Positions 1-8,743 of a stretch of 8,743 nt of DNA are shown piece by piece. Every line of letters starts with the position of its first letter. Position 1 is the stretch's first letter. The translations under genes and the position numbers were made by a program. This DNA comes from a virus (taxonomy: Duplodnaviria; Heunggongvirae; Uroviricota; Caudoviricetes): IMG/VR virus record IMGVR_UViG_2526164651_000002; one strand, 5' to 3'. The notes beneath the pieces are model-generated. The model was not told where the DNA came from, did no database searches, and was given only the letters and a program-made list of their open reading frames with translations.

Positions 1-662
<662 letters not shown>

Positions 663-890
663 TTTCGCATTGGCTAACTCCTTCGTGTATTTAGCATCGA
701 GTGCATCAGCAGCACGCTGGCGCTGCTGCATGTCAGTAATGGTTGCGTTCGCCAGCTTCAGTTCTCTTGCGTTTTTGTCGCGCTGCTCTTTGTAGGTAAT
801 GGCGTTATCACGGTAATGATTAACAGCCCATGACAGGCAGACGATGATGCAGATAACCAGAGCGGAGATAATCGCGGTGACTCTGCTCAT
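663..890 (-). pseudogene. Rz i-spanin, N-terminal ~75 codons, 3' end replaced by IS911
   Basis: [55 protein letters not shown]... has an N-terminal TM segment and coiled-coil start typical of lambdoid Rz. ATG at 888-890 overlaps the endolysin stop (ATGA). The frame runs into the IS911 terminus and stops at 660-662. Confidence 0.75.
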
Positions 891-1384
891 TGCTGCCCCC
901 ACAAACAGACTTCACGCTCAATCTCACGACGGGTCATCAGCCCTTTCCATTGCTTACCGCCAGCATATGTCCAGCGACGTAGCTGGTCACATGCGCCTTT
1001 GATATCGCCCTGGTTTATTTTGCGAAGAAGCGTCGATGTTCTGAAATTGCCAGCGCCCACGTTGTAAACGAACGAGTAAAGAGCGCCGCGCGTTGTTTCC
1101 GGTATATCGACTTTGATGTACGGGTTAATTTGTCTGGCGACAGTGACAAGGTCTTTATTCAGGAGAGCTTTGCATTCTGCTTCGGTATACGTTTTACCAG
1201 GCATGATGTCTTTTCCGGTGTGTCCGTGACATACAGCCCATACACCAATGATATCTTTGTATGGTATGTAGCTGACACCTTCCAGACCATCGTTACCACC
1301 TGGGCCAGTGATTAACACAGATGCTATAGCAACAGCCCCGCCACCAATAGCAACTGCAACAGCCTTGCGTAATGATGGCGACAT
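887..1384 (-). CDS. Phage lysozyme R, phage-21-type SAR endolysin (T4-lysozyme-like muramidase)
   Basis: 165 aa. The N-terminal Gly/Ala-rich weakly hydrophobic segment [20 protein letters not shown] is a SAR-domain signature. The E-x8-D-x5-T catalytic spacing ([24 protein letters not shown]) is present. Strong resemblance to R21 / DLP12 RrrD as recalled. Start overlaps the holin stop (TAATG). Confidence 0.9.
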
Positions 1385-1599
1385 TATTCACCTCTCGCAG
1401 CCTTACGCTTATCTTCTCTTATTTTGAAATACAGATTCGTCAGATAAGTCAGAAGCCCCAGAAGCAGACTTCCCAGCACACCAATCGCAGCCCACTGTGA
1501 TGGACTGACCTGATCCAACCACTGCAAAAACCAGTAGCCGGCACTGCCGGCGTAGGTGCCGTAGGCAATGCCTGTTGATATTTTTTCCATCTGATACAT
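1384..1599 (-). CDS. Class II holin (S21-like pinholin) with dual-start motif MYQM
   Basis: 71 aa: [71 protein letters not shown]. Two TM segments and a charged C-terminus. Met1 and Met4 give the antiholin/holin start pair. SD-like GGGGGCGGGA lies upstream. The ORF-track N-terminal extension to 1698 is rejected. Confidence 0.85.
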
Positions 1600-1630
1600 A
1601 TCCCGCCCCCGACAGACCTGTGCTATCGGA

Positions 1631-1663
1631 AAGAAAAAGGCCATCAGCAAAACTCTGATGGCC
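1631..1663 (-). terminator. Intrinsic terminator on the minus strand, ~30 nt upstream of the holin start
   Basis: Minus strand reads GGCCATCAG-agttttg-CTGATGGCC followed by TTTTTCTT (9-bp perfect stem, 7-nt loop, T-tract). Confidence 0.6.
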
Positions 1664-1772
1664 TGAATCACCTTTACCAATATTGTATGAAAAAACACGC
1701 ACGACTAATTGACAATAATTTTCATTTCCATTAAAAAAGATCGCGTAGCATTCTTAATTCATGAGGAACTTT

Positions 1773-1840
1773 ACCCGCCAGCAATCTGAGTAGCGAAAGC
1801 TGTTCATCCCCAATGTTTTTGCTGGCGGGTCCTTTTTTCT
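1773..1840 (+). repeat. 12-bp perfect inverted repeat (acccgccagcaa / ttgctggcgggt) separated by 34 nt, followed by T6 on the plus strand
   Basis: Seen directly: 1773-1784 and 1819-1830 are exact reverse complements; TTTTTT at 1834-1839. Function unknown (terminator-like for plus-strand transcripts, or a protein-binding palindrome). Confidence 0.7.
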
Positions 1841-2277
1841 ACGGTCCTCCTCCCCGGAGGGGGGCATTTCATTATTTTTCTAATCGTTACTGGTGAGAAG
1901 GCGGAAGAAAAAGCCAGTTCTTCGCCCCTAAATAACAGCATGATTCCAGTACATGCAAAATCTGATTTCCAGCTCACACATACCGAGTACTGTACAAAAA
2001 ACCGCCAACCAAGGCAGTTAAGAGTGTGTTCCCGGGGTTTGCTTAGAATATTTTGTAAGTTGTCCGAAGAGATATTTACAACACCAGAATGATGCATTAT
2101 CAGTCCCCTGCCAGAGGTTCACTACGTAACCTGACCGACAATGCACCATTCTGGTGCTGAAAAAAGAGCACTGGAACTGCAACAAAACAACATCACAGAA
2201 CAGGAGATGGTAAGGAGTCAGACATTCCCACACAATATTGTGTCAGTGCAAATAACAACCTTCGTCTCAAATCTCGC

Positions 2278-2352
<75 letters not shown>

Positions 2353-2355
2353 ATA

Positions 2356-2431
<76 letters not shown>

Positions 2432-2433
2432 GC

Positions 2434-2510
2434 TGGCCCACCACCGAGGACTCGAACCTCGCACCGTCAACTTAGAAGGTTGATGCTCTATCCGGATGAG
2501 CTAGTGGTGG
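2434..2510 (-). tRNA. tRNA-Arg (anticodon UCU), decodes AGA
   Basis: Reverse complement CCACCACTAGCTCATCCGGATAGAGCATCAACCTTCTAAGTTGACGGTGCGAGGTTCGAGTCCTCGGTGGTGGGCCA. 7-bp acceptor, D-stem GCTC/GAGC, anticodon stem TCAAC/GTTGA with loop CUUCUAA, T-arm CGAGG-TTCGAGT-CCTCG. The 5' C start is unusual; exact ends need tRNAscan. Confidence 0.75.
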
Positions 2511-2512
2511 TT

Positions 2513-2588
2513 GGTGGCCCTTGCTGGACTTGAACCAGCGACCTGGCGATTATGAGTCGCTCGCTCTGACCAACTGAGCTAAAGGGCC
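2513..2588 (-). tRNA. tRNA with CAU anticodon, ileX-like (probably lysidine-modified tRNA-Ile2 reading AUA; elongator Met not excluded)
   Basis: Reverse complement GGCCCTTTAGCTCAGTTGGTCAGAGCGAGCGACTCATAATCGCCAGGTCGCTGGTTCAAGTCCAGCAAGGGCCACCA. Anticodon loop CUCAUAA. Acceptor and anticodon arms closely resemble E. coli ileX as recalled. Confidence 0.8.
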
Positions 2589-2597
2589 GGAGGCAGA

Positions 2598-2626
2598 ATA
2601 ATAACCATATGTCATCACATCTGCAA
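2598..2626 (-). promoter_or_regulatory. Candidate sigma70 promoter for the tRNA array (-35 TTGCAG, 17-bp spacer, -10 TATTAT)
   Basis: Minus strand reads TTGCAG-atgtgatgacatatggt-TATTAT-tctgcctcc, then the first tRNA begins at 2588. Sequence inspection only. Confidence 0.4.
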
Positions 2627-2676
2627 ACTCATCTGACCACCAGCACGTTTAACGTCCTGTGCCGTTTTTCAGGTAT

Positions 2677-2705
2677 AAAAAAACCCGCATAAAGCGGGCT
2701 CTTTC
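2677..2705 (-). terminator. Intrinsic terminator downstream of the putative Q gene (candidate tR')
   Basis: Minus strand reads gaaagag-CCCGC-TTTAT-GCGGG-TTTTTTT, a GC stem with a 7-T tract, ~75 nt after the Q-like stop codon. Confidence 0.7.
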
Positions 2706-2777
2706 AAATGTCCATGTCTGCTATTCGCCTCGCGGTACAGCTTTGCGAAGCGTACAAGAATTGAAGCAGTTTTTACG

Positions 2778-3332
2778 TCAAAAAGCAATAACTTTTTTCT
2801 CTATACCAAAAGCCATAACCATTGGTTTGTACAAAATAAATTCTGCCACCTTTAGCCAATGCTCAATGCGTCTTTCACAGGTTCTTAAACTCCATTTCGG
2901 GTGTGCATCATTCAGCAGTTCAGCCATTTTGCGTTTGGTCATCCCCCGCCCCTCATACCGTTGCCGAAGGACGCTAATCAATCCTGGATGCTCTGCCAGC
3001 ACCTCACTTATGACCCGATCAATACATAACGCCTCTGCATCAGTACAATGCGCCAGCCAGCTCTTTTGCTTACCGTTAATCATATCCCGCAAAAAAGCCT
3101 CAAGTTCAGACTTGTTCAGACCTGCTTTTTTCATCCTCCGGAGCGCCTCGTTAATTGCCGTTTTTGTCAGCTTTTTAGAGGTCAACATCAGGTTAAACAT
3201 ATTCCCCGTCTTACCGCCACCAATATACGACCAGCGCCCCCACATACGTAGTTTTCCCTGAATCCAGACACTTTCCAGCGTGGTGAGACGAAGGTGTTCT
3301 CCGCTTTTTCCTGTATTCGTTGGGTAAATCAT
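2778..3332 (-). CDS. Putative late-gene antiterminator Q (phage antitermination-Q-like), 184 aa
   Basis: Position is canonical: after nin-region genes and before a terminator and the lysis cassette. Start at 3330-3332 is preceded by AGGAGG with a 7-nt spacer and overlaps the upstream stop (ATGA). Family assignment is from recollection plus context, not a search; the ORF-track extension to 3452 is rejected. Confidence 0.5.
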   Translation of the reverse strand: MIYPTNTGKSGEHLRLTTLESVWIQGKLRMWGRWSYIGGGKTGNMFNLMLTSKKLTKTAINEALRRMKKAGLNKSELEAFLRDMINGKQKSWLAHCTDAEALCIDRVISEVLAEHPGLISVLRQRYEGRGMTKRKMAELLNDAHPKWSLRTCERRIEHWLKVAEFILYKPMVMAFGIEKKVIAF

Positions 3333-3619
3333 AAATATCCCTCCTTTCTCCAGATTTCTTGTGTGCGAAAAACACCTTCTGCATGCATCAGGCGTAATTC
3401 TTCTTTGGTGTAATCGCTGGTTTTTACCCGCCCGTCGATTAAATCGTGGCACGAGCTACAGGCAATCGCTGCCTGCATATCGTGTGGCTTTATCGCTGTT
3501 CCGCACGTTCCCGCCAGTCGGTAATGCGCCAGCACAGACGTTTCCGGATCGTGATTGCAGTAGCCAGGAATTCTGACGGTGCACATCTGCCCCCGCGCCG
3601 CTTTAAGTAAATCCACCAT
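3329..3619 (-). CDS. YbcO-like nin-region protein (DUF1364, putative Zn-binding nuclease), 96 aa
   Basis: MVDLLKAARGQMCTVRIPGYCNHDPETSVLAHYRLAGTCGTAIKPHDMQAAIACSSCHDLID... has the cysteine pattern and length of DLP12 YbcO as recalled. Translationally coupled to both neighbours (TAATG at 3617-3621, ATGA at 3329-3332). Confidence 0.6.
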   Translation of the reverse strand: MVDLLKAARGQMCTVRIPGYCNHDPETSVLAHYRLAGTCGTAIKPHDMQAAIACSSCHDLIDGRVKTSDYTKEELRLMHAEGVFRTQEIWRKEGYL

Positions 3620-4218
3620 TACGCAAACTCCAGCAGCTGCGCGGCCACATTTTCGACTTGTTCCGGAGAGGAAAATTTACGGAACAGAATCCAGTTCCAC
3701 AGCACATTCAGTACAGATTTATAAACCTGCTGAAACTCGGTTTCGTCCATATTCGCAAACGCGATAGATTTCGCCCGACACCCACGGCTACCGTCCGGAT
3801 AAAAATGCTCGGTGTAAAATCCGGCCTGAATGGCTACCCACTCGCGGAAAGCCTCAAACGACTTTAGCAATGCCGTATCACGGGTTCTGCGTGTCGCAAC
3901 TGTATTCAGATATTGCTCTGCGGCTTCGCTCAGAGCTGGCGTATGTTCCCGGCCTACTGATTCACACAGGTAATCAACGAAACCGGACACCAGTTTTCGT
4001 TCGCGAGGCGTGATCGCCCCACCGATCGGAGTCCAGTAATCGAAACCCAGTTGCAGGAGTTTGAAAAAACGCTTGTGGAATGCGTAGTTACGCACACGCT
4101 TAAAGTCTGCGTGTATCCACTCACCTATTTTGATTTGATGCAGAAAATCGCAACTCTCCGGCGTCGCCGGGAGAAGTAATCCGGAAGAGGTTTGTTTGAC
4201 CAGTTGTATATGTGCCAT
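3619..4218 (-). CDS. YbcN-like nin-region protein (DUF1367 family), 199 aa
   Basis: Start MAHIQLVKQ... at 4216-4218 has the RBS GGAGAAAG. Motifs FHKRFFKLLQLGFDYWTP and AKSIAFANMDETEF resemble the YbcN family as recalled. The ORF-track upstream extension to 4260 is rejected. Confidence 0.5.
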   Translation of the reverse strand: MAHIQLVKQTSSGLLLPATPESCDFLHQIKIGEWIHADFKRVRNYAFHKRFFKLLQLGFDYWTPIGGAITPRERKLVSGFVDYLCESVGREHTPALSEAAEQYLNTVATRRTRDTALLKSFEAFREWVAIQAGFYTEHFYPDGSRGCRAKSIAFANMDETEFQQVYKSVLNVLWNWILFRKFSSPEQVENVAAQLLEFA

Positions 4219-4256
4219 CGGCTTTCTCCGGTGGCACGGTGTTACACAGCAGGAGT

Positions 4257-4544
4257 TCAATCCTGCTCAAGATTGTAGATGAGTTTATTCTTCAGCAAAA
4301 GCAGAAAACCAGCCTTAAAACCAATCTCTTTCAAAACCCGTAATGATGTGACAAATTCGTCCTCACGCAAAATAAAACCGTCCGTCAGAAGTCCATTACA
4401 AAAATAAAATAACACAGCACCGCTCTTCCTTTGTTGAGATTGCAAACATCTAATGCGGCAATGGCTGACAATCGCTCCATTCTCAACGCGCACAGCATAG
4501 AGGCCATTTTCACTAAAAATTTCACGCAATTCTTCGATTTTCAT
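4257..4544 (-). CDS. Hypothetical protein, 95 aa, no family recognised
   Basis: ORF with a plausible RBS (GGAAGGA ~8 nt upstream of the ATG at 4542-4544). Lies between the hok terminator and the nin genes. Confidence 0.4.
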   Translation of the reverse strand: MKIEELREIFSENGLYAVRVENGAIVSHCRIRCLQSQQRKSGAVLFYFCNGLLTDGFILREDEFVTSLRVLKEIGFKAGFLLLLKNKLIYNLEQD

Positions 4545-4664
4545 CTTCAGAATCCTTCCAGATAAATAGCTCTCCCCTGTTCGGGGTCCATCCCTCTTCT
4601 CCCTGCGCGCTACTTAAGTGAGTCGATTCTATCTGCGAAGGTGCGCGAATCAAATTCACCGGAA

Positions 4665-4716
4665 ATAAACAACAAAAAACCCGCCGAAACGCTGAGAGAT
4701 CACAGCGATGGGCGGG
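4665..4716 (-). terminator. Terminator-like stem-loop with T-tract downstream of hok (also a candidate hok mRNA 3' fold-back element)
   Basis: Minus strand reads CCCGCC-cat-CGCTG-tgatctct-CAGCG-tttc-GGCGGG followed by TTTTTTGTTGTTT. Confidence 0.5.
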
Positions 4717-4793
4717 TTAAGTGCGGGTGCGTTGAGGATGCCTGACACATCAGAGGTGGGCGGGGATGGGATCAGCTCCCCACCCGGTCACTC

Positions 4794-4949
4794 TTACTTC
4801 CTGGATTCGTAGTCTACGAAGACAGCGACCTCCGTCTGGCCGGTTCGGATTCGTACCTCACAGAGGTCTTTCCTCGTTACCAGTGCCGTCACTATGACGG
4901 TTAAACAGATGACGATCAGGGCGATTAACATCGCCTTTTGCTGCTTCAT
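4794..4949 (-). CDS. hok: Hok/Gef-family type I toxin, 51 aa
   Basis: MKQQKAMLIALIVICLTVIVTALVTRKDLCEVRIRTGQTEVAVFVDYESRK has the single TM helix and conserved C-terminal CEVRIR...EVAVF motif; very close to HokD/RelF as recalled. RBS AAGGAG lies 9 nt upstream. The in-frame upstream extension to 5006 may be a mok-like leader frame. Confidence 0.85.
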   Translation of the reverse strand: MKQQKAMLIALIVICLTVIVTALVTRKDLCEVRIRTGQTEVAVFVDYESRK

Positions 4950-5176
4950 AGCCTGCTTCTCCTTGCCTTTCGGCATGTAAGAGGCTAACCTACATGTGCA
5001 AAGCATGAAATTGGCCTCAGATTAATGTTAAGCGTCTTGCCGGACGCGTAATGTTAACTGGGGCTTTTCTCTATCTGCCTTTTGGTGTTCATGCCTGAAG
5101 CAGATAGCCTCAAGCACCCGCAGTCATTCTACTTACCTCGCCAATATGAAATCAATCAGAAAGGTGCCCCATAAAA

Positions 5177-5863
5177 TCACTCCTTCTCTTCTTTACCGTA
5201 GTGGAGTTGACCAATTTTGATAAGAGGGCGTCCCTGAGATTTGCGGTGTAGATTGGTATCGCGCAGAGAATACACACAGCCACAATATTCCTGCTGATAG
5301 AATTTTTCGCGCTTGCTGATTTCAATCATACGGGACGAGCCGCCCTGCTTGCGCCAGTTATAATCCCAGTACACCATGCCCGGATAATGCGCGACGGCTC
5401 GCCGCCCACAGTCGTTAACCTGCTGCATATTTTTCCAGCGTGAAATGCCCAGTGAACTGCTGATCACACTGAAACCATTTTCAGCGGCGTACAGCGCTGT
5501 CCGCTCAAAACGCATGTCAAAACACATGGTGCAACGGATCCCTCGTTCGGGCTCCCATTCCATTCCTTTGGCTCGTTCAAACCAGTTGTCTGTGTCGTAA
5601 TCAGCATCAATAAACGGCACGCCGTGTTGTTCAGCAAAGCGAATATTCTCATCCTTACGAATTAAATACTCTTTCTGAGGATGAATGTTCGGGTTGTAGA
5701 AAAAGATGGTGTAGTCGATTCCCGAGGCCTGAAGCGCCTCCATCACCTCACCGGAACATGGAGCACAGCAAGAGTGCAGTAGTAGTTTGTTTGCCCCGTT
5801 TGGGAGCTCCAATTTGGGCCGTTTGAAATCAGCAACTGTCATAAATATGTTTATTGGGGTCAT
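5177..5863 (-). CDS. QueH-like epoxyqueuosine reductase (DUF208 family), 228 aa
   Basis: Hallmark motifs [30 protein letters not shown] and [12 protein letters not shown] match the DUF208/QueH signature as recalled. The true start (Met1 or Met8) is uncertain and neither has a clear SD. Confidence 0.7.
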
Positions 5864-6082
5864 AAAAATATCAAAGAGTGTAGCATTAGAACGGGGCTAT
5901 CGGAAACAGATGTGTGACTGCTCCCCGCCCTTTCGGGCGGTCTCCTGATGATTTGAGGGTGCAGAAATCCCTCCGGTTAAGGATTAAATTTTTAACAGTG
6001 CTAAATTTAATTATTCAGTTCTGGATTTTGTCGCCCTGCGTATCCGCGCTTTCGCGTTACGCTCAATCTGTATCTGAAGTGG

Positions 6083-7260
<1,178 letters not shown>

Positions 7261-7322
7261 GTGTTGTTCTGAGGTGAGCATATCACCTCTGTTCAGGTGG
7301 CCAAATTCAGTGTGCCACTTCA

Positions 7323-7397
7323 AACTGAATTTATGCCAGCAATGGCAGGGATTCGCTCAACCTTAATTAAGGAGAAAAACATGAACACCAATTATGA
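7323..7397 (+). other. 75-bp orphan segment between IS911 and IS1, holding an RBS and the first six codons (MNTNYE) of an unidentified gene cut by IS1
   Basis: aaggagaaaaacATGAACACCAATTATGAG runs straight into the IS1 terminus at 7398. Confidence 0.4.
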
Positions 7398-7412
7398 GGT
7401 AATGACTCCAAC

Positions 7413-7916
7413 TTACTGATAGTGTTTTATGTTCAGATAATGCCCGATGACCTTGTCATGCAGCTCCACCGATTTTGAGAACGACAGTGACTTCCGTCCC
7501 AGCCTTGCCAGATGTTGTCTCAGATTCAGATTATGTCGCTCAATGCGCTGAGTGTAACGCTTGCTGATAACGTGCAGCTTTCCCTTCAGGCGTGATTCAT
7601 ACAGCGGACAGCCATCCGTCATCCATACCACGACCTCAAAGGCCGACAGCAGGCTCAGAAGACGCTCCAGTGTGGCCAGAGTGCGTTCACCGAAGACGTG
7701 CGCCACAACAGTCCTCCGTATCCTGTCATACGCGTAAAACAGCCAGCGCTGACGTGATTTAGCACCGACGTAGCCCCACTGTTCGTCCATTTCAGCGCAG
7801 ACAATCACATCACTGCCCGGTTGTATGCGCGAGGTTACCGACTGCGGCCTGAGTTTTTTAAGTGACGTAAAACCCTGTTGAGGCCAACGCCCATAATGCG
7901 TGCACTGGCGCGACAT
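7413..7916 (-). CDS. insB: IS1 InsB frame (expressed as the InsAB' transposase by -1 frameshift)
   Basis: 167-aa ORF with the typical IS1 InsB sequence; slippery TTAAAAAACTC lies on the minus strand around 7851-7860. Confidence 0.9.
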
Positions 7917-8110
7917 CCGACGCCATTCATGGCCATATCAATGATTTTCTGGTGCGTACCGGGCTGAGAGGCGGTGTAAGTGAACTGTAGTTGCCATGTT
8001 TTACGGCAATGAGAGCAGAGATAGCGCTGATGTCCGGCAGTGCTTTTGCCGTTACGCACCACGCCTTCAGTAGCGGAGCAGGAAGGACATCTGATGGAAA
8101 TGGAAGCCAC
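7835..8110 (-). CDS. insA: IS1 InsA (zinc-finger/HTH transposition regulator)
   Basis: 91 aa, [40 protein letters not shown]..., the canonical InsA sequence. Confidence 0.92.
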
Positions 8111-8165
8111 GCAAGCACCTTAAAATCACCATCATACACTAAATCAGTAAGTTGGCAGCATTACC

Positions 8166-8743
8166 GTCTTGCCGAAGAAGATCCAGCTTCTGCAACCAGG
8201 CCATTCAGAACTGAAGTGAAGCGCAGTCGACTGTTAATTGACGAGTATCTGTTAATCAGGAAAATAGCAGACGTCCAGAACGAATGGTTCGGCCTTTGCA
8301 TGGATCTTGCACTGGTAACAGGACAGCGCGAAGGAGATCTGGCGGCTATGAGATGGGAGGATATAAGAGATGGCAGGCTATACGTGGAACAACAAAAAAC
8401 AGGGGCAAAAATTCGCATTTCTCTCCCCACCACGATTTCCAGATTGAATTTAACACTTGCCGATGTACTGGATAACTTGAAAAAAATAAACGGTAAAAAC
8501 GAAAAGTTACTCGGAGGGAAGACAGCCAGGACAATCGCAGCACAGTTCAGGATTGCCCGAGACACATCCGGATTGAAATGGGAAGGTGACCCACCGCCAT
8601 TTCATGAAATCCGAAGTTTATCCGGTCGCCTGCACTCAGCAGAAAAAGGCAGTGATTTCACTCAGGCGCTCCTTGGACATCGTTCATCCAGCATGACGGA
8701 TAAATACCGTGACGGACGAGGGAGGGAATGGAAAGACATTTAG
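8166..8743 (+). pseudogene. Lambda-Int-like tyrosine integrase, C-terminal catalytic domain only (~191 codons), 5' part removed at the IS1 junction
   Basis: ...CMDLALVTGQREGD..., YVEQQKTGAKI, FHEIRSLSGRL, LLGHRSS and MTDKYRDGRGREWKDI align residue by residue with the lambda Int R-K-H-R-H-Y catalytic region as recalled. Stop TAG at 8741-8743. The first 58 codons of ORF 7991..8743 are IS1 sequence. Confidence 0.9.

Follow-up and report, generated by a model that had tools for sequence, protein, structure and literature searches.

The lysis cassettes of phage 21 and of the lambdoid prophage DLP12 are the closest described relatives of the genes considered here. By analogy with phage 21, an ancestral cassette of this kind would have been transcribed by Q-modified RNA polymerase that started at pR' and read across terminators and tRNA genes to reach S-R-Rz/Rz1; the pinholin would then have built up and depolarized the inner membrane, the depolarization would have released and activated the membrane-tethered endolysin, of the signal-anchor-release (SAR) type, and the Rz/Rz1 spanin would finally have broken the outer membrane. 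It is known that the pinholin depolarizes and kills the cell without endolysin or spanin (PMC9636201), and that its first transmembrane domain (TMD1) must exit the bilayer for triggering (bioRxiv 10.1101/2021.04.20.440580). In Escherichia coli K-12 the S-R-Rz/Rz1 module of DLP12 is reported to be expressed and domesticated, with effects on outer-membrane vesicles and biofilm (PMC7918800). Shigella, according to the summary of Leuzzi 2017 given in PMC7918800, is without a functional DLP12 SRRz/Rz1, and restoring the module in S. flexneri leads to more peptidoglycan fragment release and lower virulence; in the same account, the Prosseda/Colonna group is credited with the proposal that an active lysis module harms Shigella virulence and that this activity has been lost. 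We have analyzed a cassette of the same type on the minus strand (1599..660) of an 8,743-nt stretch of viral DNA (IMG/VR record IMGVR_UViG_2526164651_000002), the whole of which is called the window below. It belongs to a lambdoid prophage remnant of S. flexneri, and we consider it likely that it is now a silent, eroding and most likely inert relic: the spanin has been destroyed by an insertion sequence (IS), the endolysin has lost an invariant residue of its catalytic triad, the pinholin is altered in TMD1, and the early region of the prophage has been deleted.

The layout of the cassette, including the overlaps between its genes, was read directly from the sequence. The pinholin gene (phage 21 S-type, a class II holin; 1384..1599, minus strand) extends over 71 codons from an ATG at 1599..1597 to a TAA at 1386..1384, and the SAR endolysin gene (GH24, R21/RrrD type; 887..1384, minus strand) over 165 codons from an ATG at 1384..1382 to a TGA at 889..887. 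The truncated i-spanin gene, Rz' (660..890, minus strand), begins with an ATG at 890..888 and has 76 sense codons before a TGA at 662..660. The holin stop and the endolysin start overlap as TAATG, with one base in common, and the Rz start overlaps the endolysin stop as ATGA; both of these junctions had been noticed in a preliminary description of this DNA and both are present on the minus strand.

Profile searches against Pfam leave little ambiguity about the family of each gene. The holin matches PF04971 (Bacteriophage P21 holin S) with E=6.2e-34 and a score of 116 bits (cut-off, 26) over profile positions 1-63 of 64; the endolysin matches PF00959 (Phage lysozyme) with E=3.4e-44; and Rz' matches PF03245 (Bacteriophage Rz lysis protein) with E=3e-11 over profile positions 1-48 of 126 only. 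Among solved structures the best PDB match of the endolysin is RrrD (4zpu, E=1e-106), with R21 close behind (3hde, E=7e-106), and its sequence is 93-94% identical to them. With respect to the annotated genome of phage 21 (OL657228), the holin is 90% identical to S21-71, the endolysin 93% identical to R21 and Rz residues 1-76 are 87% identical; moreover, Rz1 of phage 21 begins at nucleotide 221 of Rz, and there is an ATG at the same point in the window. On matches so far above chance, the assignment of the cassette to the phage-21 type appears sound, and the Pfam, PDB and OL657228 comparisons bear out the earlier proposal of a phage-21-type pinholin plus SAR endolysin. The alignment to phage 21 and DLP12 that had been suggested along with it gives 87-93% protein identity to the former and ~90% nucleotide identity to the latter. 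The cassette is not that of DLP12 itself: this ~90% is the only level of identity reached, the nin genes are unlike, and an intact sibling of the prophage (see below) adjoins ybhA.

The most drastic lesion affects the spanin. A copy of IS911, of which the window contains the right-hand 662 bp (1..662, plus strand; the 3' part of orfB, the window beginning inside the element), abuts Rz codon 76 with its terminal TGAAGTGG..., the first three bases of which constitute the Rz' stop codon. What is left of Rz matches, without a difference, the first 76 of the 156 residues of Rz in the closest intact relative, a prophage of E. coli FDAARGOS_944 that is 99.7% identical to the window over 4.1 kb, between the hok region and Rz codon 76. 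This fragment keeps the transmembrane domain and the first part of the periplasmic domain, but at 76 of 156 residues it is far short of a full-length i-spanin (~153-156 aa). The gene for the o-spanin, Rz1, which is embedded in Rz, has been reduced to a remnant at 663..670 (minus strand): an ATG (670..668), a CGA and two further nucleotides, after which the frame reads from ATG-CGA (670..665) into IS911 and encodes no lipobox. In FDAARGOS_944, Rz1 is encoded from the same ATG in the +1 frame as MRKLKMMLFGASLIMVVGC..., with the lipobox present. Both spanin subunits have been knocked out by IS911 and the spanin is null. The preliminary description had already attributed the loss of the spanin to this element, placing the break after about 75 codons of Rz; the truncation falls exactly after codon 76. 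It had also supposed that IS911 removes the C-terminal half of Rz together with Rz1, and these are indeed separated from the cassette in the window, although two Rz1 codons survive there. In S. flexneri contig AFGY01000005.1, however, to which window positions 1..7384 are 100% identical, the distal Rz/Rz1 sequence (including the lipobox) sits on the other side of IS911, outside the window, and is thus displaced but still in the genome.

Comparison of AFGY01000005.1 with the intact relative reveals that 14 bp, GCTGAAAATGATGC (Rz1 codons 3-7), are gone at the Rz/IS911 boundary and that a target duplication is absent. A simple IS911 insertion with target duplication is ruled out by the loss of these 14 bp and by flanks that do not match. 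An inversion between the IS911 copies of the window, which point in opposite directions, is ruled out as well, because in the source genome the distal Rz DNA comes immediately after the first of them. The element is 98.9-99.4% identical to an annotated IS911-family element in E. coli VL7S7, with orfA/orfB and terminal repeats starting with TGAAGTGG, and the part at 1..662 is 99.4-99.5% identical to an element annotated as an IS3-like transposase of the IS911 family. The copy next to Rz' differs from the second copy at 3 of 662 positions and has a CGA to TGA change in orfB (391..393) that truncates its transposase. The two copies (1..662 and 6075..7322) lie in opposite orientation, with a target duplication at neither.

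Holin and endolysin had been described as intact, which is true of their open reading frames only. In the endolysin, Glu35 and Asp44 are kept and position 50 is Ala (T50A; codon GCT, 1237..1235). The canonical lysozyme triad is E-X8-D/C-X5-T, with Thr as its third residue (PMC9239132), and the P21 and DLP12 endolysins are both listed with Glu35/Asp44/Thr50 (PMC8228626, Table 3). To count homologs we have used cluster representatives throughout, in two endolysin sets (n=120, at 77-96% identity; n=128, from 50%-identity clusters, at ~40-98%) and one holin set (n=120). Position 50 is Thr in every one of the 120 closer endolysins, the Ala of the window being unique, and in 126 of the 128 representatives of the broader set, the other two being gapped. 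Consequently T50A is not a common natural variant, as none of the 246 homologs with a residue at this position carries Ala. The comparison marks T50A as a derived change at an invariant residue, one that probably lowers or abolishes muralytic activity and would leave the endolysin either hypomorphic or dead. The second substitution in this protein, A80V (changed base 1146), is probably harmless, because position 80 varies among the homologs (N/A/T/S/D/V). The SAR domain has been preserved: R6 and K7 are followed by a stretch of 19 residues, 11 of which are Gly, Ala, Ser or Thr.

The holin has two recognizable transmembrane domains. TMD1 is Gly/Ala/Ser-rich and conserved except for one substitution, S16Y (codon TAC, 1554..1552; changed base 1553), and in TMD2 the residues G40, G43, S44 and G48, which are 98-100% conserved, are all present. 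Position 16 is near-invariant, with Ser in 116 of 120 homologs (97%), Ala in two and Tyr in none. Such a change possibly delays or blocks triggering, and the holin may thus be impaired; our search of the literature found no measurement of the effect of S16Y. The start of the gene, on the other hand, seems to be a matter of natural variation. Met1 and Met4 of its MYQM motif lie in frame, as expected of the dual start that had been proposed, but the extension between them is Tyr-Gln, with no basic residue. The antiholin character of S21-71 derives from added N-terminal positive charge (PMC9636201), so that of the dual start the two Met codons are there and this extra charge is absent. We ruled out that MYQM arose from MKSM by mutation in this lineage: among the 120 holin representatives it occurs naturally in 19, as compared with 36 for MKSM and 30 for MYRM, and this common allele is hence no lesion. 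Closely upstream of the holin, the window lacks a single base of the intact prophage at each of two points, 1611 and 1639 (minus strand); one deletion falls within a run of G in the putative ribosome-binding region (GGGGGCGGG) and the other where a terminator-like hairpin meets its T-tract.

Upstream of the cassette, the machinery for late transcription is partly preserved. The gene for a Q-type late antiterminator of 184 aa (2778..3332, minus strand; DUF1133 and a weak Phage_antitermQ match, from the annotation of the identical gene in the related locus L003) has an intact frame, and neither the gene nor the interval from Q to the tRNA genes differs at any position from the intact relative. 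Three terminator-like hairpins, all on the minus strand, lie between Q and the holin. The first is a GC-rich hairpin followed by seven T residues (AGCCCGCTTTATGCGGGTTTTTTT; 2672..2702), situated ~75 nt downstream of Q, that was read by eye and had been missed by the automatic scan. The scan found the other two, at 2000..2019 and, with a 10-bp stem and a T-run, at 1638..1664, ~40 nt upstream of the holin start. The hairpin at 2672..2702 occupies a tR'-type position ahead of four tRNA genes (2278..2588, minus strand; anticodons CAT, TCT, TGT and TCC, found with ARAGORN and Rfam and annotated Ile/Arg/Thr/Gly in the intact relative), a layout that parallels the order of Q, pR', terminator, tRNAs and S in phage 21. 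With three terminator-like hairpins between Q and the holin, S-R expression should depend on Q, as it does in phage 21.

Q, however, has lost what would have driven it. An early region of ~10.9 kb that FDAARGOS_944 carries next to int and ybhA (with xis, the gam/recE-like genes, the repressor gene, cro, ydaT and the genes for replication) is deleted from the window, and IS911 and IS1 are found in its place. The second IS911, a complete copy (6075..7322, minus strand) with the flanking triplets ATC/AAC and no target duplication, truncates the prophage just upstream of a QueH gene. The IS1 copy (7398..8165, minus strand; 768 bp, with InsA/InsB open reading frames) lies between this IS911 and int', the 3' part of the prophage integrase gene (8166..8743, plus strand), which is 99.8-100% identical to the integrase in FDAARGOS_943/944. 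The ends of the IS1 copy were assigned by reading the sequence against the IS1 terminal repeat. Between the second IS911 and IS1 is a 75-bp orphan segment (7323..7397). Since the repressor/cro/replication segment has been replaced, Q is left without its native promoter and without the SOS-responsive switch, and we infer that the cassette is transcriptionally silent. The lethality that had been envisaged for the holin-endolysin pair "if the late operon fires" is doubtful on this account, the native Q promoter region being deleted and three terminator-like hairpins standing ahead of the holin.

The relatives of the window suggest an order for these events. The prophage of FDAARGOS_944 has S16 in its holin, T50 and A80 in its endolysin, and an Rz of 156 aa in which Rz1, lipobox included, is embedded; over the 4.1 kb that can be compared it differs from the window at 13 positions, three of which are in S and R and are all nonsynonymous (S16Y, T50A and A80V). 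Exact matches to the T50A/A80V endolysin occur on 53 contigs, to the S16Y holin on 22 and to the 76-aa Rz' on 9, all of them named S. flexneri, and public S. flexneri genomes annotate the genes of the cassette as holin, lysozyme RrrD and lysis protein. In sister S. flexneri loci (L004, L006 and L008-L011) the same T50A/A80V endolysin is accompanied by an S16 holin and by an IS66-family element at Rz codon 37 (window ~781); beyond this element, L004 has an intact 63-aa Rz1. Because T50A and A80V are common to two S. flexneri lineages, they would be the earliest changes; we infer that the IS66-family and IS911 insertions into Rz are independent and came after T50A, and that S16Y is confined to the IS911 lineage. 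The Rz'-IS911 junction recurs in a further genome, CP178302.1 (L013, under the label E. coli ECMA0423), which, with its modest genome of 4.44 Mb and its load of IS elements, may be Shigella-like; in it the endolysin, holin and tRNA genes are gone, the far side of IS911 being joined to the interior of the Q/YbcO region (window ~3218). The absence of the endolysin-holin-tRNA segment there shows that erosion is continuing. The density of IS elements in the relative loci is ~1 per 2.5 kb, and two insertions in the 471-bp Rz are thus weak evidence for selection.

These observations are consistent with a relic that is affected at four layers. The spanin is null, with Rz cut at codon 76 and a two-codon Rz1 split from its lipobox. 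The endolysin has lost the triad Thr and presumably some or all of its muralytic activity, and the pinholin, with a bulky aromatic residue at position 16 of a weakly hydrophobic TMD1, may be delayed or blocked in triggering. Finally, Q has no native promoter and at least three terminator-like hairpins insulate the holin, presumably leaving the cassette silent. The history would have begun with T50A and A80V, followed by independent IS66-family and IS911 hits in Rz, with S16Y arising in the IS911 lineage; such erosion could have been either neutral or favored, as reported for lambdoid lysis function in Shigella. By that analogy the relic reading agrees with the published loss of this function in the genus.

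Several points weigh against an inert relic. The second IS911 (in the same direction as the nin-Q-S-R genes) and IS1 are transcribed toward Q, and weak read-through into the nin-Q region is conceivable. TMD1 is the regulator of the pinholin and TMD2 is enough for hole formation (bioRxiv 10.1101/2021.04.20.440580), in which case S16Y might alter the timing only. The literature search found no data on a Thr-to-Ala change at the GH24 triad, whether T26A in T4 lysozyme or T50 in R21/RrrD. In T4 lysozyme the strictly essential residues are Glu11 and Asp20, and T50A could therefore be hypomorphic rather than null. The proportion of nonsynonymous changes in S and R (3 of 3) lacks statistical significance by itself, and the S and R frames have stayed open across 22 and 53 contigs, respectively.

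Instead of drift, positive selection might have caused the same decay, acting against lysis or the release of peptidoglycan fragments while the bacterium lives inside cells, and we regard such a pathoadaptive inactivation as possible, if somewhat unlikely. The results of Leuzzi 2017, as summarized in PMC7918800, point in this direction, and so do the three nonsynonymous changes in S and R, two of them at highly conserved positions, and the two independent IS insertions in Rz. Nevertheless, numbers this low do not allow a test for selection, a cassette whose early region has been deleted should be silent and so invisible to selection, and IS-rich prophage remnants gather lesions of this kind neutrally; three substitutions and two insertions are too few to tell drift from selection. 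A more specific scenario, an ordered and selection-driven detoxification in which T50A was fixed first, the spanin was then knocked out by IS elements in two lineages and the pinholin TMD1 was changed in one of them, seems to us improbable. If it were true, a second prophage would share the antivirulence role that has been proposed for the lambdoid lysis modules of Shigella, and the cassette would supply a natural Thr-to-Ala triad variant.

The preliminary description had suggested that the holin-endolysin pair is functional and could still kill or burst the cell on late transcription, by spanin-independent lysis or spheroplasting, so that the remnant retains a suicide or cargo-release capacity. 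This too is an unlikely reading, in spite of two open and translationally coupled frames, the conservation of the SAR domain, of E35 and D44 and of the glycine-zipper residues of TMD2, and a Q gene and Q-to-tRNA interval that are the same as in the intact relative. Pinholin depolarization is lethal without endolysin or spanin (PMC9636201), and spanin defects give rise to spherical cells, not to survival (PMC9239132, PMC9636201). Opposed to this are T50A at an invariant triad residue, S16Y at a TMD1 position that is 97% conserved, the deletion of the native promoter/repressor region, the several terminator-like hairpins ahead of the holin and the further loss of the cassette in the related strain L013. 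For the system as a whole the suggestion does not hold, a substitution at a catalytic residue being just what had been named as evidence against it; what can be retained is at most the pinholin alone, which might be toxic by itself under artificial expression.

Finally, that a spanin-less and attenuated pair was selected for a host role (peptidoglycan turnover, vesicle control or protein release) is very improbable and is without positive support here: the precedents of the domesticated DLP12 module, with its vesicle and biofilm phenotypes (PMC7918800), and of SpmX, which keeps the GH24 fold with the D20/T26 positions remodelled and is detoxified (bioRxiv 10.1101/418723), can be combined with a T50A allele whose frames stay open in both lineages of S. 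flexneri and with the two independent insertions in Rz, but S. flexneri is a young clone in which open frames are weak evidence of constraint, there are zero synonymous changes from which to estimate purifying selection, one lineage has an additional radical change in the holin, in at least one strain the genes are entirely gone, two Rz insertions are unremarkable at the IS density of these loci, and the data published for Shigella, in the account of PMC7918800, favor selection against lysis-module activity.

The silent and eroding relic thus remains the reading that we prefer. Its consequences are mainly for annotation quality: when a prophage remnant of Shigella has a holin-endolysin pair that appears intact, its function should not be taken for granted, and it is the catalytic triad and the missing regulatory region together that change how this one is read. 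The family, the mechanism and the loss in Shigella are already in the literature; what is new is minor, namely T50A as a natural variant of the triad, which may be a handy reagent for assessing the contribution of the third triad residue in SAR endolysins, and the order of events suggested above. The locus also adds one case to the IS-driven erosion of prophages and the loss of lysis modules in Shigella.

The remainder of the window has some features of its own. The tRNA gene at 2512..2588 (minus strand) is called tRNA-Met (CAT) by ARAGORN and tRNA-Ile in the intact relative; presumably it is a phage tRNA of the ileX/ileZ type whose CAT anticodon is modified with lysidine. The ~580 bp between the last tRNA gene and the holin (1700..2277, minus strand) have no annotated gene in the relatives, and 6 of the 13 positions at which the window departs from the intact prophage are found there. 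In Stx phages this slot is occupied by stx, and the window has no toxin genes in it. An Rfam scan of the window returned only the tRNAs and sok. The latter belongs to a hok-family type I toxin system: the toxin open reading frame (4794..5119, minus strand) is hokD in the relatives and is accompanied by a full-length match to sok (RF01794, 117 bits), so that hok/sok appears to be a second potentially toxic module of the remnant and, as far as its sequence indicates, an intact one. In the nin region, upstream of hok/sok, Q and the four tRNA genes, there is a gene for an epoxyqueuosine reductase of the QueH family (PF02677; 5177..5863, minus strand) that is kept in the intact E. coli relative. 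As a tRNA-modification gene beside phage tRNAs, it may be worth a separate look.

Set against the known systems, the cassette shares with that of phage 21 (OL657228) the gene order, the overlapping junctions, the nucleotide at which Rz1 starts and the presence of tRNAs and a terminator between Q and S. It differs from phage 21 in having MYQ instead of MKS as the holin extension, a Q of another family (DUF1133 in the window), the substitutions S16Y, T50A and A80V, an Rz cut at codon 76 and an Rz1 of two codons. DLP12 (essD, rrrD/ybcS and rzpD/rzoD) is similarly a defective lambdoid prophage with a pinholin/SAR-endolysin cassette, related to that of the window at the level of nucleotide identity given above, but it keeps Glu35/Asp44/Thr50 and both spanin genes, whereas the window has neither spanin nor triad Thr nor the upstream regulatory region. 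The prophage of FDAARGOS_944/943 (NZ_CP065613/CP065615), located next to ybhA, agrees with the window in its integrase, QueH, hok, Q, tRNAs and MYQM holin and, unlike it, has a full early region from int to replication, S16, T50 and A80, and complete Rz and Rz1 genes. The work of Leuzzi 2017, to the extent that PMC7918800 summarizes it, concerns the same type of cassette, likewise in Shigella, at the DLP12 locus, whereas the cassette described here lies in another prophage.

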